Shown piece by piece: positions 1 through 37,555 of a DNA stretch of 64,000 nt; within the stretch, counting starts at the first letter, position 1, and every line of letters starts with the position of its first letter. The notes under the pieces are model-generated. The model was not told where the DNA came from, did not search any database, and worked only from the letters and a program-made list of their open reading frames with translations. This DNA is from Escherichia phage F13. Where the stretch lies: the sequence record OP745617, one strand, 5' to 3'. The position numbers and the translations under genes are program-made.

Positions 1-102
1 GGACTCTCCAAAGAAGAGTTCAGCAGCATTGCCGAAGCAAAGGCATGGCTAAAGGCATTCTACAAGGCCAATCCTAAATTTTATCCAACTAAGGGTGCAT
101 AA
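1..102 (+). CDS. 3' end of upstream gene (partial, hypothetical protein)
   Basis: Open frame from window edge (…GLSKEEFSSIAEAKAWLKAFYKANPKFYPTKGA*) ending at TAA 100-102, overlapping ATG 102 of the next gene. Confidence 0.4.
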   Translation, partial: GLSKEEFSSIAEAKAWLKAFYKANPKFYPTKGA

Positions 103-320
103 TGACCGATAAACAATACGCAGTCGGGCAACGTGACATCGAGCAACTCGACGAGGGCGGTTATTATACACGCCACATCTATGCTATGACTCAAGAAGGA
201 CTTTACAGCAAGTCGGACATCGCCGCTGAACTGGCCCATCGCGACTTGCAAATTGATCTTCTCAAGATAGAAGTGCAGAACTTACGAAACACCCTGTTAA
301 ACACCTGGAGCTTAAAATGA
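102..320 (+). CDS. hypothetical protein (72 aa)
   Basis: ATG start overlapping upstream stop; stop overlaps next gene start (ATGA at 317-320), typical phage translational coupling. Confidence 0.5.
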   Translation: MTDKQYAVGQRDIEQLDEGGYYTRHIYAMTQEGLYSKSDIAAELAHRDLQIDLLKIEVQNLRNTLLNTWSLK

Positions 321-742
321 TACAGCGTTACGACCTGACATATGATGTGGCATCGGACGATTTCGCCGTCACTCCCGTTCCAGAAAGTCATGAAGGACGT
401 TTTGTTGCATATGAGGACTATGAATCACTGCTCAAGCTTAATGAGTCGCTAACAAAAGAGATTGAGCAATACCACGAGCGCATCAAAGTCGCTGAAGATG
501 TTATCAAGCTTTTTAGCGAGGCTGTTGAGAAATACAAGGAGCGCAACGTACCGATTAAGGAGGAAGCGTGGACCGTGTGGCTTGGTGGTGAGAATCCTGC
601 ACCTGGCGAGATTGTTGAATACAAGCTGCGCAATGGAGGTGATAAAGTATTGTCGAGACTTTCTGACCATCTTCACTGGGGTCATATAGGAGCACTCAAA
701 GGCAGCGACATCATTGCTTATCGGGTCGTTAAGGAGGGGTGA
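317..742 (+). CDS. hypothetical protein (141 aa)
   Basis: ORF coupled to neighbours by ATGA overlaps at both ends. Confidence 0.55.
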   Translation: MIQRYDLTYDVASDDFAVTPVPESHEGRFVAYEDYESLLKLNESLTKEIEQYHERIKVAEDVIKLFSEAVEKYKERNVPIKEEAWTVWLGGENPAPGEIVEYKLRNGGDKVLSRLSDHLHWGHIGALKGSDIIAYRVVKEG

Positions 743-1275
743 TGGGTAACGATGCAGGATGGGGCAAGCCGCGATACTCAAAACTTGCCCACTACTTTGA
801 CGACGGCGAGCAAATCAGCTTGTGCGGTAAATTCAACAAAGGCAATACAGAGTTGACCGATGCTCAAGAAATGGAATCAAGTCTGACAATTGGTGATTGC
901 TCTAAGTGCAGAAAGGCATTATATGAGTTATTGACTCTAAGGGGATTGAAAGCGGCAAAATCAAGGGATGAATGGGTCATCAACGTCTGTGAAGGGAATC
1001 CAGAATTGATGGATGAATTGCTGAAAACAGATGCCGTTAATGCCATTTTCAAAAGGCATTATAAAACTTGTATGCGTTACAAGATGAATGATGATATTAT
1101 TTTTATGGTATTATCTTATTCAAGGAGCACAATGGACGTCAAAAAGCTTCGACAATATCGCCACAAGGTCATGTGTGAATTGCGCCGTTTAGGAGTTATT
1201 GTGGATAATAATGTCATTAAAACGGAGTTAAAGAAGCGTGATAAAAGGAATGGTGACTGGAAGGTCAGCGGATAA
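739..1275 (+). CDS. hypothetical protein (178 aa), Cys pairs suggest possible zinc binding
   Basis: ORF with CGKF…CSKC spacing; last gene before the AT-rich element at 1.54-1.99 kb. Confidence 0.5.
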   Translation: MMGNDAGWGKPRYSKLAHYFDDGEQISLCGKFNKGNTELTDAQEMESSLTIGDCSKCRKALYELLTLRGLKAAKSRDEWVINVCEGNPELMDELLKTDAVNAIFKRHYKTCMRYKMNDDIIFMVLSYSRSTMDVKKLRQYRHKVMCELRRLGVIVDNNVIKTELKKRDKRNGDWKVSG

Positions 1276-1539
1276 ATAAACACTGTTTACGTGTTTTGAA
1301 GAATGGAATGTGTGCAATGGGTCGCTTTATGCGGCCTTTTGTCGTTTGGGTCATGTTTTGCTATGGAATAATTATGAGGTTGTGTTTTATTTATTAATTG
1401 TGCGGAAATATTTAGAAATATATATAAACAGGATTGTTAATATTTTAATAGTTTATGGCTATTGGTCCGTGGTGTTTGTTAGATTCTATCTATGGATTGG
1501 ATTTTCTTGGGTCGTGAAACGTGGTTTTGAACACATTTG

Positions 1540-1990
1540 ATACGCCTAAAATACGGTTAAAAATTAAGCGTATCATGGCTGCAGGCCGCGCCGTTCCTGG
1601 ATTCCTCTTTTCCAAATTGGTACACCCTTACGTCATGATACGTCATGGTTTTTTATCCGTATCAGTGTACAACCCTTGCCGCGCCTGGCTTGTACATTAA
1701 TCTTACGGATGATACGGATAAAACTGAGCATCGTTATATATAGAATTCGAAAAATTAATTAACTCCATTTTAAAAACATTTATATTAATTTTTTTCATAT
1801 CCTCATACTTATGTTAATTTATATATTTAACGTATCATCCGTAAGATATAAGTAAAAACAAAGACTTGCGGCAATACGGATGATACGTCATGATACGCTT
1901 CAACCAGCCAGCAGCGGCTAAGTCGTTGATTTGCATAACAAGCGGCAAAAGGGATGGATTTCTTTTATACGTATCAAACAGTACACCACG
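1540..1990. repeat. Composite element A: AT-rich core (about 1735-1830) flanked by inverted repeats aatcttacggatgatacgg (1699-1718) and ccgtatcatccgtaagat (1831-1847), plus extra GGATGATACG-type copies (1629-1665, 1873-1898)
   Basis: Read directly; homologous to element B at 18055-18345 (shared aatcttacggatgatacgga and tatata-gaattc-aaa-ttaatt core). Confidence 0.8.
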
Positions 1991-2062
1991 CACCACGGTC
2001 CGTTATCCATTCAGCAATATGATTTGTGTACGTTTATAGCCATAATGAACATCAATCTGCAC

Positions 2063-2091
2063 TTGAATATAATGTCCATCCATTGTATAAT
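2063..2091 (+). promoter_or_regulatory. sigma70-like promoter with extended -10 (TTGAAT-N17-TGTATAAT) upstream of the TerS-like gene
   Basis: Hexamers and spacing read from sequence; the transcribed leader would contain two AATTTGCACTATG motifs. Confidence 0.4.
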
Positions 2092-2111
2092 TCACACTAT
2101 TAATTTGCACT

Positions 2112-2600
2112 ATGGGATTTTGCACTATGAGTCAAGATTATGTAGCGATGCCTGAAGACTTTGAAGACCCGCGATTCGCAGAGCACAATCAGGCTTTATT
2201 CGATGAGTTCATTGACCTTGTTATTCAGGGTCATGACATGCGCGCAGCTTTTGCACTAGTATTTGGAATGGAAGTTGCAACGGATAACTACACTGGCCAG
2301 CGAATCCTTTGCACGCAACGCAATCCATACTACAAGATGCGCTTCAAAAAGCGTATGGAAGAGATGCCACTCAAGGATTTGTGGAGCGTAAAAGGTGCAA
2401 TTCACAATTTGGTTAAGCTTGTTCGTGATCCAGAAGTCGCGGCGTCAGCCAAGCTTAATGCTATTCGTGAACTGAATATCATCTACGGCATCACGATGAT
2501 TGATGAAAACGGCAATAGTAAAATGGGCCGTTCCATGGACGATTTCTACAAGGATTTTGGAGAGGCGGCCAAAGAAGGTGAGCAATTCTCCCGCCACTAG
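2112..2600 (+). CDS. terminase small subunit-like DNA-binding protein (possible start at 2127)
   Basis: About 160 aa; NQALFDEFIDLVIQGHDMRAAFALVFGM and C-terminal AKLNAIRELNIIYGI resemble TerS (Terminase_2-type) segments; recognised from memory only. Confidence 0.4.
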   Translation: MGFCTMSQDYVAMPEDFEDPRFAEHNQALFDEFIDLVIQGHDMRAAFALVFGMEVATDNYTGQRILCTQRNPYYKMRFKKRMEEMPLKDLWSVKGAIHNLVKLVRDPEVAASAKLNAIRELNIIYGITMIDENGNSKMGRSMDDFYKDFGEAAKEGEQFSRH

Positions 2601-2619
2601 CCAATTTGCACTATAAAAC

Positions 2620-2654
2620 GGCCCTAGAACACATTTTCTCCAATTCTAGGGCCA
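2620..2654. terminator. Hairpin between convergent genes: perfect 10-bp stem GGCCCTAGAA/TTCTAGGGCC, 15-nt loop
   Basis: Inverted repeat read from sequence; no strong T-run, so terminator function is inferred from position. Confidence 0.4.
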
Positions 2655-2714
2655 TCGGTAATACGACGGGGAAGGTTACAAACATAAACGCGTTAGAAAG
2701 TGTATTATTATAAG

Positions 2715-2978
2715 TCATCTTTTAGTCACCTTACGTAACAATTTACGACCTTCAACCGTCCAATCGAACGACTCCACCAGCAGATTCGCACTATAACCTA
2801 AGACGATGCGTCCCTTCTCGTTATCGACCCGCCAACAAGTCTCGAATAGCATTCGATTTGCACTATTAACTATTGCCGCAACTCGCGTAGGATAAGCGCA
2901 ATTTGAACTATGGTCGTAAAGGGATAAGGTGCGACCACTTCCGATGGACAACGTAGCGATGAGAATGAGCGTATTCAT
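2715..2978 (-). CDS. doubtful ORF (87 aa) overlapping three copies of the AATTTGCACTAT motif
   Basis: Has a possible GGTGG RBS, but the motif copies inside suggest the region may be regulatory rather than coding. Confidence 0.2.
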   Translation of the reverse strand: MNTLILIATLSIGSGRTLSLYDHSSNCAYPTRVAAIVNSANRMLFETCWRVDNEKGRIVLGYSANLLVESFDWTVEGRKLLRKVTKR

Positions 2979-3028
2979 AAGCCACCAATTTGCACTATGA
3001 AAAGCGACCCCGAAGGGCCGCCATTCGA

Positions 3029-3655
3029 TTAGATAATCTGGAAGGTATAGGATTTGTTGCCGAACTCAAAGTTCAAGCGCCCAGCTTCCTTAAGCTTCAT
3101 GCGGAAGCGAATGTGCTTGCTATCCGGCAAGCCCAGCACGGCGAACGCTACGCGGACCGATTTGAACTCGCCTACACCCTCGACCATAACGCCGTTACGG
3201 GTGAGACGCTTTTGCGCCACTTCCTTATTATCCCAACTTTTTGCAATACCTTCGCTATTCGAACGGCGATGGGAAGGAGTTCCATTTTGCACTACGCAAT
3301 TTGCACTATCGTTTAGACCGCTCTTAACGAAGGCTTCATACTCTTCGTCGGTCATCGCGTCGAGTTCTTCCTGGGTCGGCTCGGCCTTTTTAACGACCGC
3401 ACGCGCCTTATGCGTTTTTACATCGCTGGACACTTCCTCGCGCGACTTCGCTTCGGGGATGGGCGATTCGTTGGACGGCTCATCGAGCGCGTTTAAGGAC
3501 TCGATTAACGCGATTACGCGAGTCTCGGCGGTACGGCGGTCCGCAAATTTCTTAATCGGCTTCGAACCGGAATTTGCATTATAAAATGCAACGAGGTCGG
3601 CGGTCTTAGTTGCGATAACGTCGCCGCTAGTCGAGAAACGATTTAAGCTAACCAT
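3029..3655 (-). CDS. hypothetical protein (208 aa)
   Basis: AGGAG RBS upstream of ATG at 3655; contains two tandem motif copies on the opposite strand and the TTTGCATT-N4-AATGCAAA palindrome near its 5' end. Confidence 0.6.
   Translation of the reverse strand: MVSLNRFSTSGDVIATKTADLVAFYNANSGSKPIKKFADRRTAETRVIALIESLNALDEPSNESPIPEAKSREEVSSDVKTHKARAVVKKAEPTQEELDAMTDEEYEAFVKSGLNDSANCVVQNGTPSHRRSNSEGIAKSWDNKEVAQKRLTRNGVMVEGVGEFKSVRVAFAVLGLPDSKHIRFRMKLKEAGRLNFEFGNKSYTFQII
3573..3592. promoter_or_regulatory. Palindromic operator-like site TTTGCATT-ATAA-AATGCAAA
   Basis: Perfect 8-bp inverted arms with 4-bp spacer; a dyad version of the AATTTGCA motif. Confidence 0.35.
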
Positions 3656-3735
3656 AATGAACTCCTATTTGTTAGGGCGCTAGGCGCGAAAGAATTTTAT
3701 TAAAGCGCCGCGCACGACGCTCTAAAAATCCTCTC

Positions 3736-4020
3736 TTACGCTTCGACGAGGGAGAAGGTCTCAAATTCTTCTTCGCCCATAACGAGTAAGATGTTACCGA
3801 TTTCGACCGCTTCGAAGAAGTATCCGTTAACGTTTACTTCGAAGGCTTCGCGGTCCGATTCCGGTAACGCCGCGTAAAGTTTAAAAGCCTCGGCGACCGT
3901 TACCCCACCCGCCTCGATGGTCTGGTCTACGTTCGCGGCGTAGACTTCGGATAAAATTTGTTTTACGCCGTAGTTCTCGACGATAGCGTTACGGATGGAA
4001 GAAACGTTAAGAATAGCCAT
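3736..4020 (-). CDS. small early protein, paralog family member A (94 aa)
   Basis: AGGAG RBS; preceded on the minus strand by the conserved promoter/hairpin cassette; MAILNVSSIR…EVYAANVD…VNGYFFEAVEIG aligns with the 4958-5248 product. Confidence 0.6.
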   Translation of the reverse strand: MAILNVSSIRNAIVENYGVKQILSEVYAANVDQTIEAGGVTVAEAFKLYAALPESDREAFEVNVNGYFFEAVEIGNILLVMGEEEFETFSLVEA

Positions 4021-4088
4021 TTTAAACTCCTAGTTGGGAGAGGCGTTAACGACCTATTCGCTAACTCATCCCGTCCCGATATGAGTAC

Positions 4089-4116
4089 ATTATAATATAG
4101 TGTAGAAAAAAGTAAA
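4089..4116 (-). promoter_or_regulatory. sigma70-like promoter (TTTACT-N16-TATAAT) of the conserved early cassette, minus strand
   Basis: Reverse complement of 4021-4128 is nearly identical to the plus-strand cassettes at 4548-4655 and 4851-4957. Confidence 0.5.
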
Positions 4117-4160
4117 GCACTTTTTCGATAAAAATGCGATAAATTATTTTATCTTTTTTC

Positions 4161-4188
4161 TTTACTTCTTCGTACACTCGCGTATACT
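4161..4188 (+). promoter_or_regulatory. sigma70-like promoter (TTTACT-N16-TATACT), diverged copy of the early cassette, divergent to the minus promoter
   Basis: CTTTACTTCTTCGTACACT shared with the other cassettes; followed by a GGGC…GCCC hairpin and a GGGAG RBS. Confidence 0.45.
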
Positions 4189-4244
4189 TGTTTATATCGA
4201 GACGGGCGATGGCCCTTCCTTCTACTAGCATCGGGAGCTTTATT

Positions 4245-4547
4245 ATGACTACTTTAATCTCTTCCATCCTTACTTACGACGAAGACCGTTTAACCGTTCG
4301 CTCTCTTATCGCCGCCGTTAACGCCGAACTAGAATCTAGCGCCATTAAGGTCCGCGCGGTTGCCTTCGTCGGTCTTTCCTTCGACGATATCAAGTACGCC
4401 GAACGTAGCGCCATCCGCTTCGCGAAGACCGACGACGAAGCCGTTACCCTTATCGAGACGGTTACTCCGCGCGGCGAAACGTTAATTATCGTCGAGTATA
4501 TCGACGTAGAAGGCGATAAGGCTTATAAATATTTTATCGCAAAATAA
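4245..4547 (+). CDS. small early protein, paralog family member B (100 aa)
   Basis: ATG at 4245 with GGGAG RBS (the track's 4188 start is a TTG inside the -10 element); N-terminus MTTLISSI resembles the paralogs; 3' two-thirds lies in the tandem duplication. Confidence 0.6.
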   Translation: MTTLISSILTYDEDRLTVRSLIAAVNAELESSAIKVRAVAFVGLSFDDIKYAERSAIRFAKTDDEAVTLIETVTPRGETLIIVEYIDVEGDKAYKYFIAK

Positions 4548-4558
4548 CGAAAAAGTGC

Positions 4559-4587
4559 TTTACTTCTTAGTACACTAAGACTATAAT
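4559..4587 (+). promoter_or_regulatory. sigma70-like promoter TTTACT-N17-TATAAT (cassette copy 1)
   Basis: Near-consensus -10 and 17-bp spacer; followed by the 5' UTR hairpin at 4610-4630 and AGGAG at 4644-4648. Confidence 0.55.
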
Positions 4588-4609
4588 GTTTTATATCGAG
4601 AGGGGATGA

Positions 4610-4630
4610 GGTAGCGAATAGGTCGCTACC
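4610..4630 (+). ncRNA. Conserved 5' UTR stem-loop (GGTAGCGA-ATAGG-TCGCTACC)
   Basis: Perfect 8-bp stem; the minus-strand copy (GTTAGCGA/TCGTTAAC) keeps pairing through a compensatory U-A and a G-U wobble. Confidence 0.5.
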
Positions 4631-4655
4631 CTCCCGACTAACTAGGAGAATATTA

Positions 4656-4850
4656 CGCGCGGTTGCCTTCGTCGGTCTTTCCTTCGACGATATCAAGTAC
4701 GCCGAACGTAGCGCCATCCGCTTCGCGAAGACCGACGACGAAGCCGTTACCCTTATCGAGACGGTTACTCCGCGCGGCGAAACGTTAATTATCGTCGAGT
4801 ATATCGACGTAGAAGGCGATAAGGCTTATAAATATTTTATCGCAAAATAA
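4656..4850 (+). pseudogene. Duplicated 3' fragment of gene 4245-4547 lacking a start codon
   Basis: Second repeat unit encodes RAVAFVGLSF…KYFIAK in frame, but the position matching the ATG of gene 4958 reads ACG (4655-4657). Confidence 0.45.
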
Positions 4851-4861
4851 CGAAAAAGTGC

Positions 4862-4890
4862 TTTACTTCTTAGTACACTAAGACTATAAT
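4862..4890 (+). promoter_or_regulatory. sigma70-like promoter TTTACT-N17-TATAAT (cassette copy 2, drives gene 4958-5248)
   Basis: Identical to copy 1 (offset 303 bp); hairpin at 4913-4933, AGGAG at 4947-4951. Confidence 0.55.
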
Positions 4891-4957
4891 GTTTTATATC
4901 GAGAGGGGATGAGGTAGCGAATAGGTCGCTACCCTCCCGACTAACTAGGAGAATATT

Positions 4958-5248
4958 ATGATCACTTTATCCGCTATCCGTGCCGCTCGCGTCGAAACTT
5001 CCGAAAACTCTAACGTATTTGGCGAAACCTTAGAGAGCGTTTATCTCTCTAACGTTGACGCGATTATCGAGTCTATTTATGAGCCGATCAACTTCCTCGA
5101 CCTTTACAAGTATCGCGATGAGGACATCGTGTCCTACCGCGTAACGATTAACGGCTTCGTTTATACGATTACCGAAATCGGCGGCGAATATCTCGCTGTA
5201 CCGCAACTCGGCGGCGAAGTAACTTACTTTAAAATCGTAAGCCTTTAA
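4958..5248 (+). CDS. small early protein, paralog family member C (96 aa)
   Basis: ATG with AGGAG RBS; clear similarity to the 3736-4020 product (IR-A-VE, VY-NVD-IE, NG-xxE-EIG). Confidence 0.6.
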   Translation: MITLSAIRAARVETSENSNVFGETLESVYLSNVDAIIESIYEPINFLDLYKYRDEDIVSYRVTINGFVYTITEIGGEYLAVPQLGGEVTYFKIVSL

Positions 5249-5259
5249 GGAGAAGAAAA

Positions 5260-5469
5260 ATGATTAATATGAATAACTCTCTTAACGCGCGCGCCCATCG
5301 CACCGCCGTCATCGATATGTTCCGTGAGCTTAAGGACTTATGCGATAATATGAACGCGATGTTATCCATCGGCGGCTGGGGATACGAAGAAGAAGTTAAA
5401 TATGCGGTTATGCGTCGCCGTCGCGATAACGTCCTTGGGCAAATTAAACGCGCCGGATTATTCCTTTAA
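5260..5469 (+). CDS. hypothetical small protein (69 aa, basic)
   Basis: AAGGAG RBS 8 nt upstream of ATG; followed by an intrinsic terminator. Confidence 0.55.
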   Translation: MINMNNSLNARAHRTAVIDMFRELKDLCDNMNAMLSIGGWGYEEEVKYAVMRRRRDNVLGQIKRAGLFL

Positions 5470-5495
5470 TTATAATCAACCACCGTTACTAATAG

Positions 5496-5517
5496 GCCGC
5501 GCTTAGTCGCGGCTTTT
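5496..5517 (+). terminator. Rho-independent terminator (GCCGCG-cttagt-CGCGGC followed by TTTTCTT)
   Basis: GC stem plus T-run directly after stop of gene 5260-5469. Confidence 0.6.
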
Positions 5518-5638
5518 CTTCGTCCCTATCTCGGTGCGCTCCTACGCGAAAACTCCTTTATCCTTCCCTTCGTCGTCGCATAATCTTCGTCGATATGCGC
5601 CTTAGTTCGCATAACAGGTATTACGTTAAATGGAGAAC

Positions 5639-5715
5639 ATCGCGTAAGTCCTTGTTTTATATAGACACCTATATCGGACCGTTAGGGCGGGTCGCGTAAG
5701 TCGTTGTTTTATAAA
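5639..5715. repeat. Direct repeat pair (A/G)TCGCGTAAGTC(C/G)TTGTTTTATA (5639-5663 and 5691-5715)
   Basis: Two 25-nt near-identical copies 52 bp apart in a 700-bp ORF-free region. Confidence 0.6.
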
Positions 5716-5838
5716 GGCGCAAAACTTTCCCTTCGTTCCGAACTAAAACGAGGAATATGCCGACCCTTCGTCCGAAAATAGTACGCATGCGAAATTACAT
5801 GCATCTAGAATAATCCCCACAGATATTATCCTACACGC

Positions 5839-5903
5839 AATCATTCGCTTTCGAATCATTATGCTTCATATTATTATGCGTCGAATCATTCGCTTTCGAA
5901 TTG
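5839..5903. repeat. Direct repeat pair ATCATTCGCTTTCGAAT (5840-5856 and 5885-5901)
   Basis: Read directly; each unit contains a TTCGAA palindrome. Confidence 0.6.
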
Positions 5904-5991
5904 TAACGCTGGAAACTGTAACGGCGATTGATTATTGCGTTCGTGTGGTTTTTATGGCATGGGTCTTTTGGTGCGTTTTGCTACTTGATGG

Positions 5992-6103
5992 AATTTGCGG
6001 TACACTAATCAAAATACGACACATTTAGTCTACTAACTTTTCAAAGAAAAAGTCCTGGACAGTACCGTACTATTTTGTACCCACAGGAAATTTGCAGTAC
6101 ACT
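5992..6103 (+). repeat. Variant motif pair AATTTGC(G/A)GTACACT (5992-6006 and 6088-6103)
   Basis: Shares AATTTGC with the 2.1-3.6 kb motif family and GTACACT with the early promoter cassette. Confidence 0.5.
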
Positions 6104-6183
6104 CCTGCGCGCGGCAGGCAAAATAAAGGGCCGCACCAAGCGACCCACGATTCACGATTCACGGTTAAAGCAACATCCACCCA

Positions 6184-6564
6184 CTATTCACTCTTATGGG
6201 CATCACCAAATCCATCAGCAATCTGGCTGATCAACGACTCAATGGACACAGTTTTACCAATTGATCGAGCGGTTATGGCGAGCATATTATCAATCAAACC
6301 ATGATTGACACAATACTCTGGAGATTTAGAATCATCTTCAGAACAACCAAAAAGCTGGTCGCGCAGACTTTCAAGAGAACGCTCAATATTTTCCAACTTC
6401 TCTTCTAAATCGGATTGGCGACGTAAAACCCATGTTAAGTCTCGGTTGCCGACTTCCAACCCATCAGAATAGCAAGGTGGAGCGTCAATTTTGATGCTGG
6501 AACCAAAAGCAGTGCCGCTGCCTTTAGTATAAGTATGGCTCATAGAATCATTTTTATTTGACAT
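6184..6564 (-). CDS. hypothetical protein (126 aa from ATG 6564)
   Basis: Last gene of the minus-strand block; internal ATG with weak AAGG RBS chosen over the track start. Confidence 0.45.
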   Translation of the reverse strand: MSNKNDSMSHTYTKGSGTAFGSSIKIDAPPCYSDGLEVGNRDLTWVLRRQSDLEEKLENIERSLESLRDQLFGCSEDDSKSPEYCVNHGLIDNMLAITARSIGKTVSIESLISQIADGFGDAHKSE

Positions 6565-6661
6565 ATCATTACCTTTAATATTTGGGTGATTAACAATAAC
6601 TATAATAAAGCCGCATAGCGCGGCATTCAAATCGATTTATTAATTGTGACGATTGGATTCA

Positions 6662-6856
6662 TCAATCGATACCAACTGAGCCGATGTGCTGAAAGAACTC
6701 TGAATAAACTTCCTTCCAGTACTTACGCGCTGCTTTCTGGGCTTGTCCTTTGCGCTTGAAGCTTTTGCCTTGAAAGATGAAACGGTCGCTTGTCGCGCGA
6801 TACTCCACCACACCTTCCAGCCATTGTAAGAATGCTACTGATTCATTTTTATTCAT
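6662..6856 (-). CDS. hypothetical small basic protein (64 aa)
   Basis: GAGGT RBS 5 nt upstream of ATG. Confidence 0.5.
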   Translation of the reverse strand: MNKNESVAFLQWLEGVVEYRATSDRFIFQGKSFKRKGQAQKAARKYWKEVYSEFFQHIGSVGID

Positions 6857-6863
6857 TTCAACC

Positions 6864-7259
6864 TCAATATTTTAATAAGAAAGCACCCAACCAACTTTCC
6901 TCAACCTCGCGGCCAGTAGCCACACGGTCGGTCTTGGCTATGGGTCTGGATTCGCCGCAGGGCAACCCGTCTTGTAGTTGTGTACTATTGCCAATTCTCA
7001 CCAGAACCTTTCCATCAGGGTCGATATAAGCGCGACAACCCATGATTTCGAGTCGTTGTAGACACTGGCGAATCGTTTTCAGCTTCTCACCGGACCGGAT
7101 AGAGCGCGGTCGCGACCGCTGACCGTTCTTATTTACTGTACGCTTGAAGACCGGAATATCATTGGTGCGTTGCGGCTTGGGTCGGTAGTAGGCTTCTTCG
7201 CCAGGAGTCGCACCTGGCGTCAATTCGCGCTTGAGCGCCTTTTCAATATCAATGATCAT
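6864..7259 (-). CDS. hypothetical protein (131 aa from ATG 7259)
   Basis: Start placed at MIIDIEK, just downstream of the stop of the small upstream ORF (coupling); the track's N-terminal extension overlaps other ORFs. Confidence 0.45.
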   Translation of the reverse strand: MIIDIEKALKRELTPGATPGEEAYYRPKPQRTNDIPVFKRTVNKNGQRSRPRSIRSGEKLKTIRQCLQRLEIMGCRAYIDPDGKVLVRIGNSTQLQDGLPCGESRPIAKTDRVATGREVEESWLGAFLLKY

Positions 7260-7261
7260 AA

Positions 7262-7360
7262 TTATGCCGCAGCAGCGTGAATTATTGCGTAAACAATTCC
7301 TAACAGGGCGACAACGCAAACAGTGCCCCAAAATGCAAAGCGTCGTGCCTCTTTATCCAT
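7262..7360 (-). CDS. possible small membrane peptide (32 aa, MDKEARRFAFWGTVCVVALLGIVYAIIHAAAA)
   Basis: Single hydrophobic helix; GGTGG-like RBS; sits between two coupled genes. Confidence 0.25.
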   Translation of the reverse strand: MDKEARRFAFWGTVCVVALLGIVYAIIHAAAA

Positions 7361-7640
7361 TGTCCACCGCCCCAATATCCATGAAATTAAAAACCAATTT
7401 CGCCATTTCATCTTGTGAAATGACATTATAGTGCTTAGGCAAATCGCTTTCTGATAATACCTTCTGGGCTTCTTCTTTTGTCTCAAAGAGAGGGATGCAC
7501 CAGTTTACTGCTTCACCAGATTCATTACTGTCTACTTGCTTTAAAAAGACCAAGCGGTTATCTTCAGGATCAATGCCGCAGATGACGTATTTTGGCAATG
7601 CTTTTGCTTTTTGAGTCTTATCAATATCTTCAAATTTCAT
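7353..7640 (-). CDS. hypothetical protein (95 aa from ATG 7640)
   Basis: GAGGTG RBS upstream of ATG 7640. Confidence 0.5.
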   Translation of the reverse strand: MKFEDIDKTQKAKALPKYVICGIDPEDNRLVFLKQVDSNESGEAVNWCIPLFETKEEAQKVLSESDLPKHYNVISQDEMAKLVFNFMDIGAVDNG

Positions 7641-7721
7641 AATACACCTCACTTGTTAACGTATAATGAGTATAACTTAATAGCGCATAAAGTAAAGGCG
7701 CTTTTCAGCGCCTTGAGTGAA

Positions 7722-10031
7722 TTATTTTGCTGATTTCAGCGCGGCTATCTCTGCCTTGAGTTCACCTATCTGATCCATGAGTGCAAGAATAGCCTCGTGG
7801 TGCAATGCCGCTGCCACTCCGTAAGTGTCGACTGATTTGACATCCTTGACCACGGTCCCATCAGCCAGTTCCATATCACCTGAAACAGAAACGGCTTCTG
7901 GGAAATCAACCTCAACATCTTGAGCCACGAATCCAAAACCTACTTTCGCGCCGTCAGTTTTCAATCGCCATGACACGCCATTAATCCTTTTCATCTTGGT
8001 CAATGGGTCTTGAATCTTGACAATCTCATCCTTGATTCTGACGTCTGAAGAAGTACCCCAACCGCCAGCGCAAACAGCATTACCTGCTTGCAGGAATTGG
8101 AAATACTTGTTGGTGCCTACACCGCCAGCAGTAGTGGTCATTATGGTCACATCGCCATTACGCTCAGAATATACCCGACCATACGTTGCTGTGTTGGCAC
8201 TGTTCTTAAAATCGATGAACGATTGGTTGTTGGTGTTTCCAATGAACGTCGCTTGACCGCCGCGAGTTATCAACTGGCCTTTTGCATCAACGTTCCCAGA
8301 GCTGGTGATCAAGTTATTTGGCACAAGCAAGTTGCCGTTGTCGACAAAATCGAATGCCTGGCTGGCGGCAGTCGTCAAATTGGTAACGGTCAATCGCATG
8401 TAATAAGCGCCACCGATAACAGCGCGAATGCGCATGCGACCTTCAGCCTCAACAGCAGTCCCCACTCGATACTCCGACATGACGCTGCCGCCGTCAGCGG
8501 TCGTGCCTGGACCTGGCATTGCCGTATCGCCGTTTATAACAGACCATTGCGTATTCGCCGCTGTGAATCCACCGGATGCACGAATCACCCAAACGCCTGA
8601 AAAGTTGCGCGGCAATACTTCATCTGTTGCAAGGTTGTTACGACCGTAAGCTGGGCTTGAGTTAGAAGCTCTTAGCGCAACGCTTCCCAAAGAGTTCGCA
8701 CCAGAACTTAAAAGCGAAACACCTCTTACATATCGCGGAATGGTGAATCCTTCTCCATTGATGAATGCGCCGCCAGCACCTGCGACAACCGTTCCTGATG
8801 CTGGTTCACTTGCAGGGCCGGACCCGTGGAAGTTGATGTTGCCAGTGATGTTTGGCAGGAAGGATTCCATTATCATTCCGTCATTTGACGAGTTGCCGCC
8901 ATCGCCACGGGCAAAAAGTGCACGAACACTTCCTGTCTGAACGCCGTTACGGTCTGGAACACGGAATGTTGTTGTTCCGTTGCCTAAAGAATACTTTCCG
9001 CGCTTCAGCGGGTCAGCCAACCAATCTGCATCAGCAATAGGCGTAAGCATTTGCGCATAAGCCCAAAGCTCAGGCCAGTCTGCACGGTTAAGCAATTGTC
9101 CGTCGGCAACAACTTCATACGACTGAATATAGGCGCGACTGTCGCGCAGGTGAAAGTCACCAACGCCATAGTTCATTACGCCGTTCATGCTTGGGCCAAC
9201 GGTGCCAGTATTTACTAAGTTCTCAACCCAACGCTTCGTCGCGGCATCATAATCATTGACGGGGTCGCCAGCCAGTGGTGTTGAGCCTTGTGGACGAATA
9301 TTCAACCATGCTTGCGCATTGTCTGCTGATCCTGTGCCGCCCATGGAAGTTGGAACGATGCTCTGATCAGCAACAGGGCCAAATCCAAAGGCATCTTTCA
9401 TTCCCTGAATAGTCGTTTGACCTGTGCCGCCGTTTGCAATTGGAATTGTGCTTTGTGAACTATAAATTTGCGCCCAAGGCGACCATGAAGATGTTTCAGC
9501 ATTGTACCTTCTTTGGTACAAGTTATTTGAGTTGAATGTGGTGTATCTTTGAATGCAACTTTCCAAAGATATGGCAGTCTGCAGGACTTCCAATATCCCA
9601 GCTTCCAAGGCTACTGGATAGTTGAGGGATGTCTGCGCAGCAGCATTTGAATATTGGTAATATTGCCCAAACCAAGTTCCAGTCAAAGAGTTCAGATTTA
9701 TCCCCGACGGCAAAAGTCCAAAATTCCTGACAGTATTGGTCAAAGATGCGGCAGTTGTTCGAATGGAAAGCATGTCGCCTGCCGCCCATGCGCGCGCTGC
9801 AGTTCCTTCCTGTGCACGCTGCACAGTCAGGACGTTCCCAACCACGGCTGTTACAGTGATGATTTCAAATTGGAGGCCTGTTGCAGCGTCGACGATTGTC
9901 GCCACTACACGCTCGTTTGCACCCAAGGTCGGAAAGCCCGACCCTGAGCGGATTGTGATTGTGGTGTCTGAAGTCGTCGCTGGCTGAGCGAGCGCGACCT
10001 CAAAGTTGTTTTTGAATATTAGCCTTGGCAT
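7722..10031 (-). CDS. tail fibre/tail spike protein with C-terminal intramolecular chaperone (S74-type) domain
   Basis: 769 aa, Gly/Thr/Ser/Asn-rich; C-terminus has SDVRIKDEI…DGAKVGFGFVAQDVEVDFPEAV, typical of the auto-cleaving chaperone domain of phage fibres; GAGGA RBS. Confidence 0.7.
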   Translation of the reverse strand: MPRLIFKNNFEVALAQPATTSDTTITIRSGSGFPTLGANERVVATIVDAATGLQFEIITVTAVVGNVLTVQRAQEGTAARAWAAGDMLSIRTTAASLTNTVRNFGLLPSGINLNSLTGTWFGQYYQYSNAAAQTSLNYPVALEAGILEVLQTAISLESCIQRYTTFNSNNLYQRRYNAETSSWSPWAQIYSSQSTIPIANGGTGQTTIQGMKDAFGFGPVADQSIVPTSMGGTGSADNAQAWLNIRPQGSTPLAGDPVNDYDAATKRWVENLVNTGTVGPSMNGVMNYGVGDFHLRDSRAYIQSYEVVADGQLLNRADWPELWAYAQMLTPIADADWLADPLKRGKYSLGNGTTTFRVPDRNGVQTGSVRALFARGDGGNSSNDGMIMESFLPNITGNINFHGSGPASEPASGTVVAGAGGAFINGEGFTIPRYVRGVSLLSSGANSLGSVALRASNSSPAYGRNNLATDEVLPRNFSGVWVIRASGGFTAANTQWSVINGDTAMPGPGTTADGGSVMSEYRVGTAVEAEGRMRIRAVIGGAYYMRLTVTNLTTAASQAFDFVDNGNLLVPNNLITSSGNVDAKGQLITRGGQATFIGNTNNQSFIDFKNSANTATYGRVYSERNGDVTIMTTTAGGVGTNKYFQFLQAGNAVCAGGWGTSSDVRIKDEIVKIQDPLTKMKRINGVSWRLKTDGAKVGFGFVAQDVEVDFPEAVSVSGDMELADGTVVKDVKSVDTYGVAAALHHEAILALMDQIGELKAEIAALKSAK

Positions 10032-18054: not shown

Positions 18055-18345
18055 AGTTTTATACGTATAATGACGTATCATCCGTATCAAGTAAGTTGTT
18101 GTTTTCAAAAGAATCTTACGGATGATACGGATGATACGCGTTGCCGCCGTACTATATAGGAATTCAAATAAATTAATTTAAAATTATATATCTAATTTAA
18201 TTTTATTTTTTTATAAACTCTTATATATATGAAAAGTATCCGTATCATCCGTATCATCCGTAGCACACCAGTGATAGCGCGGCTTATACACCGATACGGA
18301 TAAAAATACGCCTCATTTTATCCGTATCATCCGTATCACACTAAT
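18055..18345. repeat. Composite element B: AT-rich core (about 18153-18236) flanked by inverted repeats TACGGATGATACGGATGATACG (18117-18139) and CGTATCATCCGTATCATCCGTA (18241-18262), extra copies at 18072-18091 and 18316-18340
   Basis: Read directly; homologous to element A. Confidence 0.8.
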
Positions 18346-33542: not shown

Positions 33543-34810
33543 GTGCACAATATTCTTACATAGTAAGCACTGGTGTAATAACCATCGACACAGCCGATTT
33601 GCTGGCTGACGTTCAAAGTGAATGGATTGAGTCATTAGGGGTCGGGCTTGACGTTGATGCATCGACACCGCAAGGCACCCTAATCGCGACAGAGACTTTG
33701 GCAAGAACTTCAGTCATGAAGAACAACGCCGAGCTGGGAAGTCTCATCAACCCTAATTATTCATATGGCGTATACCTTGATGCCATCGCGGCATTGCTTG
33801 GTATTGAGCGAACGAAAAACATCAGCACGATGTTGAAAGGAATTACCGCAGAAGGAACGCCGCTGTTGGAAATTCCTGCTGGAAGTTTGCTGACGGATTC
33901 AAACGGCACATACTGGTATGTTCTTGAAGACGTTCAAATCACTTCGACTGGCAAGACAAGCAACATGACTCTTGCATCAAAAGATTATGGCTCATTTACT
34001 GTTGCCCCTGATGAAGAGTTTACAGTGGTGCAAGGATATGACGTCATCGGATGGTCAAGAACGTATTCAACATCAGCAACGACGACCGTACCAGGTACGC
34101 AATACATGGGCGACGGAGCGTTAAAGGCCGCTCGCGTAAAGCGCCTTTACCAGCAGGGAATTGCATCGCTTGGTGCTATTCGCGCTCGCGCCATGTCGGT
34201 CGACGGCGTGGAATCGGTGATGGTCGTGGAGAACGACACGGGATTGCCTGGAACGGTGCGCGGCATCACCTTTTCAACGCCTAACGGTGTCTGGGTGTGC
34301 GCAAGCGGAACGTTCGATAAGCAAGTTTTTGCTGAGACTATTTTCAAGGCAAAGATGGGCGGCCAGCCGTGGGACTTTGGTGCTACCAACCAGGGTGATC
34401 CAGTCAACTCGCCTGATGGAATAGAAGTTGTCGACGAAGAATCGCAACTGTCTTATTTCGTAAAGTTCAACACTGCTGTCATATATGACTTGTATGTCGA
34501 TATTACTGTTGTAAGAGGCACCGCAACCGCCGATGCCGAATCTATTATTGCCGCTGTGTTGAATTACGGTAATGGAAATTTTAACGGCGAGCAAGGATAT
34601 GCAGTGGGCCAATCTCAATCTTCTTTTGAGATTGCTTCAGCAGTGTCTTGCGAGTATCCAGGTCTGTACATTAAAGATTGCAAAATTGCAGCAGTAAAAA
34701 GCGGACAGGCAGCGCCAAATTATCCATCCGATTACGGCAGCGAGTGGATTGCCAATCCTTGGGATAAGGCTAATACTATGCGCGGCTTCATCAACGTTAA
34801 ATTTGTGTGA
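33539..34810 (+). CDS. baseplate J-like protein (candidate)
   Basis: 423 aa, ATGA coupling, position after the spike-like gene. Confidence 0.45.
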   Translation: MSAQYSYIVSTGVITIDTADLLADVQSEWIESLGVGLDVDASTPQGTLIATETLARTSVMKNNAELGSLINPNYSYGVYLDAIAALLGIERTKNISTMLKGITAEGTPLLEIPAGSLLTDSNGTYWYVLEDVQITSTGKTSNMTLASKDYGSFTVAPDEEFTVVQGYDVIGWSRTYSTSATTTVPGTQYMGDGALKAARVKRLYQQGIASLGAIRARAMSVDGVESVMVVENDTGLPGTVRGITFSTPNGVWVCASGTFDKQVFAETIFKAKMGGQPWDFGATNQGDPVNSPDGIEVVDEESQLSYFVKFNTAVIYDLYVDITVVRGTATADAESIIAAVLNYGNGNFNGEQGYAVGQSQSSFEIASAVSCEYPGLYIKDCKIAAVKSGQAAPNYPSDYGSEWIANPWDKANTMRGFINVKFV

Positions 34811-34816
34811 GGAACT

Positions 34817-37555
34817 ATGCAAAAGTTTGACACAAACCTGTTGCAAAACCTTAAGTGGATGCAGAACAATGCGCCAAACATTACATCTTTGGTGCAAAAG
34901 AAAAGTGACTGGTATGAAAGATACCAAGATCAGTTTTGGACTGACTGGTACAATAACATTTTTAACATTGACACTTGTGATGCAATGGGCATTTATATTT
35001 GGTGCGACATTCTTTGCATACCAAGAGACTTTGTGGACTTAAGCAATTATGAGCACAACTGGGCGTTTGGACCGACGCGCGACAACTTTGAAGGTGCGGA
35101 CAACATCGGCGGCAACTTCTTTGGTGCTGGCGGGAAGGTTGTAAAGAATATCGAAGAAGCGCGCATACTTCTTAAGCTTCGTTATCTGACGCTTACAAGT
35201 GATGGCCGCATCGAAAGTATCAATCGCATGCTTAAGTGGATTTTCAACCGTGGAGAGGCTTGGGATTACTCTTCATCACGCTACGCATATGTGACCGACA
35301 ATACTCAAGGCGCAGTGTCTTCGTCTGAATCAACCAATGGCTCATTCCTTCTGTACGACTGGCAAGGGTCAACTGAGATTCAGCACGATTATAAGCAGAT
35401 ACTTTTAAGCCATGGCAACAACGCCGGACTGACCATCAGCGGAGTATCAGGCACCGTGTCACGGATGGCGCATCCAGATTGGTACTCATGGGGGAATGGC
35501 TCCGGCACAGGTCTTGTCGGCGGCGACACCAGACAGTATGGCGGCCCTGATTACTATGGACAGTTGTGTGGTGATTACCCAGGCGAGGCCATAGAGAATT
35601 TTGCCAACGCAGTAAGGGTAGTCAAGACTGCTTCAAGCGGTGAGCCTGTGTATTCTTTGGCAGATAATCCAAGCGCCCAATCCATTGCGCTTCCTTCGCA
35701 GGCTGGCGTTAACGTTTGTTATAGCTTCTACATAAAGGTGCTTTCTGAAAATGTCGCTTCTGTTTCGGTTACAGAGAATAGTGATGCATCTAGTAATGGA
35801 AAGTTGTTTGACCCAGTCACTGGGCAGTTCAACTTGGACCCGTATTTGAGCTATTTCATCACAGGCAAATTCGATGGAGTAAGAAGGGAATCAAGCCGTG
35901 GTGGCATCAAAGCAATCGGCGGCGATTGGTATCGAATCTGGATTGTAGAGCAGACGGCAACCGCTGCGTCTGGAGTAAGTACCAGCTTTTCAATAGAGTT
36001 GAAGGCGACTGCCGCTGGATCAACTCAAACTCGTGAATTGCCTGAAGGGTCTGATGCACTTCTTTTTGGATACTCGATTTGCGTCTGCGACCCTGTTCAG
36101 AATCCAAATGGACCTGAGCCTTATTTTTATGGAACGCAAAACCCTCCTTCTGACGGAACAGCAATACTGTCTGTAACGGCGGGAACGCTCAACAACATCT
36201 CCTGTGCAAACGGACCGCTGACGACAAGAAACGGTGTGGTTGGCGAGTCATTCATGCAACCTGGCTCATCACTTGCATACTCTGGCTCAATCGGCGGCTA
36301 CCCGTACCCAGGGAACGCCACATTGATTGCAGAGACTGACGGCATCAGACGCTCATGGAACGTTAGCAGGCTTGATGGAGTACCGCCGCCGCCGACCGCT
36401 GACTATTACATGGAATACGTCATCGGACCTTATTTCGCCAACAACCTGTCAGACAACTTTAAGACGCTAGTTGGCGACAGGGATGAAGGATTCTTGCCAG
36501 CAAATGCCGGAATACGCTGGCAGCGTTACCAAGAAGTCGCAGACTTATCTGATATTGATTTGACTGTCAGCAACATAACAGACACGCGAGTAGGATTTGA
36601 AACGGAAGGTGTTGCTTGGATTAACACTGACGGTATCATCAGAGTTGGCGGCATTAACGAGTGGCCGCTGAACAACTTCAACGGTGTGATACGCCAGCTT
36701 GAATCTTTGAAAGGTGTAAACCAGGTCATCGACGGCGCGCTTGTCAACGACTATTCAATCTCAAAAGCATCAAGAGATGACTTTGGTCGTGAAATCCCAC
36801 GTGCCGCAATCACTAACTACTGGAGATACACACAGCCCAATGACGGCACATCTTTTGGCAATATCATTGAGGATGGCGCAAACACGGTCACAGCGACGCC
36901 AATCAGCGGTGTACCCAACCAGTTCCCATCATTCAAGCTTTCCGCTACAATAGGGACTGTGCCAGCGTCCGGTTATGCACGCGCTGTACTTGCTACTAAA
37001 TACACTGGCACCCTGACTGGTCCTTTATCATTCATTGCGGTAGTCAAAAACAACACGGTTAACGGTCAAAAACTTTTTGTAACTGTACCGGATGGGATGG
37101 GTGGCTATATCCCTAAATTCTACAACATAGGCGCAGGTGATTTGCAACGTATCGAAATTGACCTTGCCGCTGAGATTGTTGAAGGCGCTACCTGGGATGG
37201 ATCAACAGGCGGCATCAGCATCGGTTTGATATCAGGGAAAGACTTGCCGACCGAAGTTGGTACGACTCTTGAACTTGATATTTTAAGCTTGATGCTTGTG
37301 TCTGGTAATACGATGAATGCGCTTGCAATTTCAACAAGCGAAGATTTCGCAAAGAAGACTGCGACTTCTATATACATCAAAAACCCAGGATCACTTGCCA
37401 CTGGAGTTCAATTGATTGCTTCTAATGGTGATGTTGTAGCAACAGTAAACTTTCCGAGAAGTGCTGCTGGTGGTTATGTTTCAAGCATGAACATAACTGA
37501 CTTAACTGGTGATTGGGCATCAACCCTTTTATCAAAAATTAAATACATCGTGTAG
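34817..37555 (+). CDS. large baseplate-associated/tail fibre protein (912 aa)
   Basis: Size, Gly/Ser/Thr-rich composition and position upstream of the distal tail fibre. Confidence 0.5.
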   Translation: MQKFDTNLLQNLKWMQNNAPNITSLVQKKSDWYERYQDQFWTDWYNNIFNIDTCDAMGIYIWCDILCIPRDFVDLSNYEHNWAFGPTRDNFEGADNIGGNFFGAGGKVVKNIEEARILLKLRYLTLTSDGRIESINRMLKWIFNRGEAWDYSSSRYAYVTDNTQGAVSSSESTNGSFLLYDWQGSTEIQHDYKQILLSHGNNAGLTISGVSGTVSRMAHPDWYSWGNGSGTGLVGGDTRQYGGPDYYGQLCGDYPGEAIENFANAVRVVKTASSGEPVYSLADNPSAQSIALPSQAGVNVCYSFYIKVLSENVASVSVTENSDASSNGKLFDPVTGQFNLDPYLSYFITGKFDGVRRESSRGGIKAIGGDWYRIWIVEQTATAASGVSTSFSIELKATAAGSTQTRELPEGSDALLFGYSICVCDPVQNPNGPEPYFYGTQNPPSDGTAILSVTAGTLNNISCANGPLTTRNGVVGESFMQPGSSLAYSGSIGGYPYPGNATLIAETDGIRRSWNVSRLDGVPPPPTADYYMEYVIGPYFANNLSDNFKTLVGDRDEGFLPANAGIRWQRYQEVADLSDIDLTVSNITDTRVGFETEGVAWINTDGIIRVGGINEWPLNNFNGVIRQLESLKGVNQVIDGALVNDYSISKASRDDFGREIPRAAITNYWRYTQPNDGTSFGNIIEDGANTVTATPISGVPNQFPSFKLSATIGTVPASGYARAVLATKYTGTLTGPLSFIAVVKNNTVNGQKLFVTVPDGMGGYIPKFYNIGAGDLQRIEIDLAAEIVEGATWDGSTGGISIGLISGKDLPTEVGTTLELDILSLMLVSGNTMNALAISTSEDFAKKTATSIYIKNPGSLATGVQLIASNGDVVATVNFPRSAAGGYVSSMNITDLTGDWASTLLSKIKYIV

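Follow-up and report, generated by a model that had tools for sequence, protein, structure and literature searches.

Spontaneous tandem duplications are known from phage and bacterial genomes, classically from the rII region of T4 and from lambda. They usually carry a short homology at the junction and are mostly detected where selection acts or genome size is constrained. If slippage is the mechanism, a few bases of junction homology are usual, and perfect tandem repeats of 303 bp are recombinationally unstable. Another known system is adaptive gene amplification, the 'gene accordion', for example of the poxvirus gene K3L. Apparent repeats may also originate from sequence assembly. Circularisation is a common assembly artefact, and the resulting redundancies can end up inside a sequence (Turner et al. 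2021, PMC8785237). A spurious internal repeat of 79 bp in the short-read assembly of Tokugawa, a phage with direct terminal repeats (DTRs), was disproved by Sanger sequencing and removed (Elek et al. 2023, PMC10438801). The terminal repeats of the phages WFC and WFH have a length of about 3.7 kb (Korf et al. 2019, PMC6563267).

The window analysed here, a stretch of 64,000 nucleotides of Escherichia phage F13 (OP745617), harbours a tandem duplication at positions 4353-4958, for which Tandem Repeats Finder reported a period of 303, 2.0 copies, 100% matches, 0% indels and a score of 1212. Unit 1 (4353-4655) and unit 2 (4656-4958), both on the plus strand, were the same string over 303/303 nt in a direct comparison, and an independent repeat search returned the same pair, which confirms the perfect tandem of two 303-bp units that the initial annotation had recognised by eye. 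A chance origin of a 303-nt match (about 4^-303) is impossible. The bases flanking the units are mismatched on both sides (C 4352 versus A 4655, and T 4959 versus C 4656), and therefore the unit is exactly 303 nt long and the microhomology at the junction is zero. The new junction is located at 4655/4656 and reads ATATTA/CGCGCGG. In a test for a microhomology-mediated (slippage) event, the identity ended at the unit borders, with 0 extra nt on both sides, and a partial third copy was absent. With the duplications of T4 rII and lambda the locus shares the head-to-tail arrangement, the intact flanking genes, the chimeric junction and the zero divergence of a young event, but it differs from them by the absence of microhomology and of evidence for selection.

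Two early genes, both intact, are involved. Gene A (4245-4547, plus strand) encodes 100 aa, begins with ATG 4245 preceded by GGGAG 7 nt upstream, ends with TAA 4545-4547 and has the annotated homologues Mansfield gp006, WFC_00006 and Bas100_0098. In the SP13 record OP352608.1, the same gene is given as a 112-aa version starting with ATG 4209 (4209-4547), which is only about 21 nt downstream of the -10 element (TATACT, 4183-4188) of the promoter P_A. The gene A start of Mansfield, WFC and Bas100 is the ATG equivalent to 4245 (100 aa), where the Shine-Dalgarno sequence GGGAG is present, and judged by this sequence context the 100-aa version looks like the correct one. Gene B (4958-5248, plus strand) encodes 96 aa, with its ATG at 4958-4960 and AGGAG at 4947-4951 in front. 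Gene B has a distant paralogue in the divergent gene at 3736-4020 (minus strand; 28% identity, E 1e-5, BLASTP), and the exact gene B protein is recorded only on OP352608.1 and one Logan contig. Neither gene A nor gene B nor the divergent paralogue matched a Pfam or PHROG entry. Further downstream, the same operon contains a 69-aa gene assigned to phrog_10377 'transcriptional regulator', which together with the terminator following it occupies 5260-5515 (plus strand). This terminator (5494-5515) is the first one predicted on the plus strand, and none was predicted between the duplicate copies.

The interval between genes A and B is 410 nt in the window and 107 nt in relatives. The unit, which begins with codon 37 of gene A, includes the last 65 codons and the stop codon of this gene, followed by the whole A-B intergenic region with promoter, 5'UTR stem-loop and the Shine-Dalgarno sequence AGGAG, and it ends with the A of the gene B ATG. 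Since the unit extends from the 3' part of gene A to this single base, genes A and B stay intact. What is added is a fragment of gene A (the last 65 codons and stop, 4656-4850, plus strand) without an in-frame start codon, ahead of which the frame reads TAG (4644-4646) and then AGA ATA TTA. No ATG, GTG or TTG occurs in the gene A frame of 4656-4850, and the ORF listing (minimum 20 aa) contains no ORF of at least 20 aa in that frame; those listed there are an out-of-frame TTG ORF, which unit 1 has as well, an antisense ORF and gene B. In the sequence at 4644-4657 (plus strand), the Shine-Dalgarno AGGAG (4644-4648) is followed by ACG (4655-4657) in place of the original ATG. The view that the duplicated reading frame has a ribosome binding site and lacks a start codon was therefore correct.

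The duplicated segment also brings a second copy of the promoter of gene B, P_B. The extra copy (TTTACT-17 nt-TATAAT, 4559-4587, plus strand) was identified by a promoter scan with a 10/12 match and by an exact match to the 56-nt cassette, and the copy in the original placement relative to gene B (4862-4890, plus strand) was likewise found by promoter scan and cassette match. From its position, the extra P_B would drive the start-less fragment and read through into gene B. The 5'UTR stem-loop of the P_B transcript is present at 4599-4639 (extra copy, plus strand) and at 4902-4942, with a folding energy of -21.9 kcal/mol and an 8-bp GGUAGCGA/UCGCUACC core predicted by RNA folding. This energy is no better than that of shuffled sequences (z = -0.47, not significant), and an Rfam scan of positions 1-9000 gave no match at or near the hairpin. 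The hairpin sequence is also part of the divergent cassette at 4018-4130 (minus strand). As a side observation, the promoter/5'UTR cassette has three natural copies, at 4018-4130 (minus strand), 4140-4247 (plus strand) and 4848-4960 (plus strand), which are composed of GTGCTTTACT, the -10 element, TTATATCGAGAGGGG, the hairpin and AGGAG. The two cassettes most alike drive the divergent paralogues at 3736-4020 (minus strand) and 4958-5248 (plus strand), and the products of all three cassettes are ORFans without a Pfam or PHROG match.

The initial annotation attributed the duplication either to a recent recombination between promoter cassettes or to an assembly artefact. The former, an unequal homologous recombination between promoter/5'UTR cassettes, would have related cassettes at its disposal before gene A (4140-4247), before gene B and, inverted, before the divergent gene (4018-4130). 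However, the cassettes of genes A and B are spaced 399 nt apart and not 303. The left breakpoint (4352/4353) is at codon 36/37 within the coding sequence of gene A, 106 nt downstream of the P_A cassette end. The right breakpoint (4958/4959) separates the A from the T of the gene B ATG, and its sequence context is unrelated to that of the left one. Furthermore, such an event is expected to leave a hybrid cassette, whereas the two P_B copies do not differ from each other and P_A has remained unchanged. Given that the breakpoints are located in unrelated sequence and off the cassettes, this explanation was rejected, and we ascribe next to no probability to it. An origin from restriction and ligation was also discarded upon inspection by eye: a BclI/Sau3AI site (TGATCA) starts at 4959, but it would be cut one base away from the breakpoint, and no corresponding site is present at the left breakpoint.

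The comparison with related genomes, which had been suggested as a check, revealed a nearly identical phage. The top megablast match of the window was Escherichia phage vB_EcoM_SP13 (OP352608.1, genus Wifcevirus) with 100%, followed by 27 further Wifcevirus records with 91-96%. OP352608.1 is overall 99.997% identical to the window, yet it has a single 303-bp unit in each copy of its terminal repeat (2587 and 71072), so that unit 1 equals its positions 2587-2889 and, in the other terminal-repeat copy, 71072-71374. In the alignment, window positions 1-4655 correspond to 66719-71374 and positions 4656-64000 to 2587-61932 of this record. Over 64 kb, the two sequences otherwise differ by one SNP and by a base that the window lacks at either border of the DTR with the unique region. 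The SNP is a G at window position 36525 versus a T at record position 34457, and the T is also present in TH32, Bas100, FEC19 and WFC. It replaces Leu498 by Arg (L498R) in an 840-aa structural protein of the tail module (SP13_050 homologue, phrog_4797), the gene of which sits just upstream of the tail-fibre gene. A derived or host-range variant stock may account for the substitution, as may a sequencing error. Exact look-ups of the 100-aa gene A product and of the L498R variant protein returned no record, and a literature search for SP13 yielded the ICTV taxonomy list only.

A query of 160 nt centred on the junction was compared with the 28 Wifcevirus records, none of which (0/28) aligned with the junction in one piece. 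The two halves of the query were found in single-unit order about 303 nt apart in 17 records (about 480 nt in two of them), while the remaining 11 records matched the promoter half only. Mansfield, WFC, Bas100 and a Logan contig (SRR21661036, 93-94% identical), inspected singly, all show gene A, about 107 nt and then gene B. The wider spacing of about 480 nt in RCIP0363 and ECO71P1 was considered as a possible duplication and rejected, as an extra ORF of 153 nt (50 aa) is present instead and the unit is single. This ORF sits between gene A and P_B, at 1413-1565 in the RCIP0363 and ECO71P1 sequences examined, and on account of it the A-B interval is, as far as can be judged by sequence comparison, a site of gain or loss of small genes in the genus. 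A 34-mer of the junction had 0 matches in IMG/VR viral contigs, GTDB genome contigs and JGI metagenome contigs, complete E. coli genomes and PLSDB plasmids, included in view of a possible joint assembly of the phage and its host, gave no match, and the exact protein of the antisense ORF spanning the junction was on no record. The search for an IMG/VR contig with the unit at both ends returned only the known isolates WFC, ECML-117 and FEC19.

The single unit in OP352608.1 and in the relatives supports the other of the two initial proposals, an assembly artefact. As judged by this comparison, the 606-bp stretch is a redundancy of one sequence version and not a property of the lineage. On balance, and with modest confidence, we favour the explanation that an un-trimmed overlap of the contig ends was made internal by circularisation or re-orientation. 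The de novo contig of an apparently circular, DTR-collapsed genome of the SP13 type would begin and end with the same 303 bases, and these ends would have been joined untrimmed at the circularisation of the contig, at its re-opening in the arrangement of related genomes, or in cutting the window from a stretch that included the join. We infer that the junction was made in silico. In favour of this are the perfect identity of 303/303, the exactly 2.0 copies and the arbitrary, homology-free junction, as well as its presence in none of the 28 Wifcevirus records or the public contig collections and the one unit in the nearly identical OP352608.1. The re-opening of contigs co-linear with relatives is, moreover, a recommended practice.

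Further support for the assembly artefact comes from the terminal repeat. OP352608.1 comprises 72,384 bp with an exact DTR of 3,899 bp, while the window contains a single, collapsed DTR copy at 1767-5968 (3899 bp plus the extra 303 bp), as determined by BLAST against OP352608.1 and a comparison of the borders. A collapsed terminal repeat suggests that the window is a circularised sequence of the type produced by assemblers. A linear source of about 68.8 kb would have to start at 61.9-66.7 kb of the record, a range that includes the start convention of ECML-117, EC150 and Eco4M-7. This range suggests a re-orientation, which is the step at which end overlaps turn internal.

A circularised linear contig with a real terminal repeat of 303 bp would look exactly alike, with the linear genome running from 4656 to 4655 and its ends joined head to tail. 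In the genus, however, the DTR is 3.7-3.9 kb long (1-3673 in Mansfield by PhageTerm prediction, 3784 bp in WFC, 3899 bp in the SP13 record) and its left border is conserved at ATTTTAAAAAC (window 1767), while the 303-bp duplication falls in the middle of the DTR and within a gene. A true short terminal repeat was therefore rejected as highly improbable.

Compared with the published artefacts (Turner et al. 2021; Elek et al. 2023), the locus agrees in the perfect direct repeat, in the homology-free junction, in the DTR phage collapsing to a circle and in the absence of the repeat elsewhere. It deviates from them in that the repeat is internal and in tandem and not at the record ends, the joining or re-orientation being a step that we infer, and in that its 303 bp exceed typical k-mer overlaps. 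The latter point speaks against the artefact as far as the common de Bruijn assemblers are concerned. The maximum k is 127 for SPAdes and 255 for MEGAHIT. As 303 nt are more than the usual k-mer overlap, the artefact presupposes a manual join or an assembler of the overlap-layout or greedy type. Also at odds with an artefact is that the window is no mere re-cut of OP352608.1, given that its DTR borders agree with those of relatives and that L498R is private to it, and that a tandem duplication never destroys a gene, so that nothing in the anatomy of the locus argues against viability.

The same observations are consistent with a real and very recent tandem duplication in the sequenced stock, generated by illegitimate (homology-independent) joining during replication, an explanation which we regard as less probable than the artefact. 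It would place tandem copies of the early promoter P_B before gene B and the regulator gene, with a dead, start-less piece of gene A in between, and the arrangement could be neutral or under mild selection for an increased early expression. The private L498R and the relative-like DTR borders look like those of a stock that was sequenced independently and may be derived, and in such a stock a new duplication would be plausible. All genes are intact, there is no terminator between the copies, the locus tolerates insertions, as the extra 153-nt ORF of RCIP0363 and ECO71P1 demonstrates, and zero divergence fits a young event. On the other hand, the duplication is missing from the 99.997%-identical OP352608.1 and from the relatives, its junction is in no public collection, and this junction is devoid of microhomology.

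A more specific version assumes that a real duplication was selected in a derived SP13 stock carrying L498R, with the doubled strong P_B raising the expression of gene B and of the phrog_10377 regulator. If true, this would be a case of promoter amplification and of the birth of a gene fragment caught within the DTR of a Wifcevirus that replicates very fast; we hold it to be improbable. It has in common with the 'gene accordion' that the duplication could raise the expression of downstream genes, but no complete gene is amplified here (65/100 gene A codons plus the intergenic region) and there are two copies only. Adaptive gene amplification was thus rejected as a class for this locus, the unit being without any complete gene.

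If the duplicated DNA exists, its effect should be small, with genes A and B intact. Gene B and the 69-aa regulator gene would be served by two tandem sigma70-type P_B promoters in addition to P_A, and the extra ribosome binding site would face ACG and the start-less fragment, so that, judged from the sequence, translation should not occur. Both the assembly redundancy and the real duplication are ordinary, the former belonging to a known class and the latter being a common spontaneous mutation that leaves genes intact. A real duplication would be routine and young, its effect on early-gene expression would be modest at most, and it would open no long-standing question. The main relevance is one of data quality: the 303-bp redundancy should be verified or trimmed if the sequence is used or deposited. 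Left as it is, it would add 303 bp of false length to the genome and put a phantom gene fragment and a phantom additional promoter on the map.

Two probable errors in the public SP13 record came to light as well. At its DTR borders, OP352608.1 has an extra A and an extra T (CTCCA/ATTTT and TCTTT/TTGG; 68485 and 3897-3900). The window, Bas100, WFC, Mansfield and the Logan contig have CTCC/ATTTT at the left border and GGGTCTTTTGG / TCTTTTGG at the right border (window 1767 and 5966-5968). The two extra bases are probably off-by-one errors, which may have been introduced when a DTR copy was appended by hand to a collapsed assembly.

Several other features of the terminal repeat region were observed. 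The gene of the small terminase subunit (annotated in Mansfield with an HHpred note in the record) corresponds to window positions 2127-2600 within the DTR, about 7 kb from the large-subunit gene. Degenerate direct repeats are located at 5640-5716 and 5823-5910, just inside the right DTR border at 5968, in a region with no convincing ORF; they comprise repeats of 25 nt (52-nt spacing) and 43 nt (45-nt spacing) as well as an array with a 15-nt period at 5839-5901. The 7-mer TGATACG occurs 23 times in the window versus 6.6 times expected (shuffle maximum 13), and 17 of the 23 occurrences are found in two non-coding clusters at 1538-1976 and 18074-18338. Both clusters contain an element of ~170 nt that is composed of AATCTTACGGATGATACGGAT, about 110 nt of AT-rich DNA and CGTATCATCCGTA, with a mean column identity of 78%. 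One of these elements extends across the left DTR border (1767), which is the physical left end, and the other is situated upstream of structural genes at about 18.1 kb. From their sequence and position, the TGATACG clusters may serve as an array to which terminase, a regulator or an origin protein binds.
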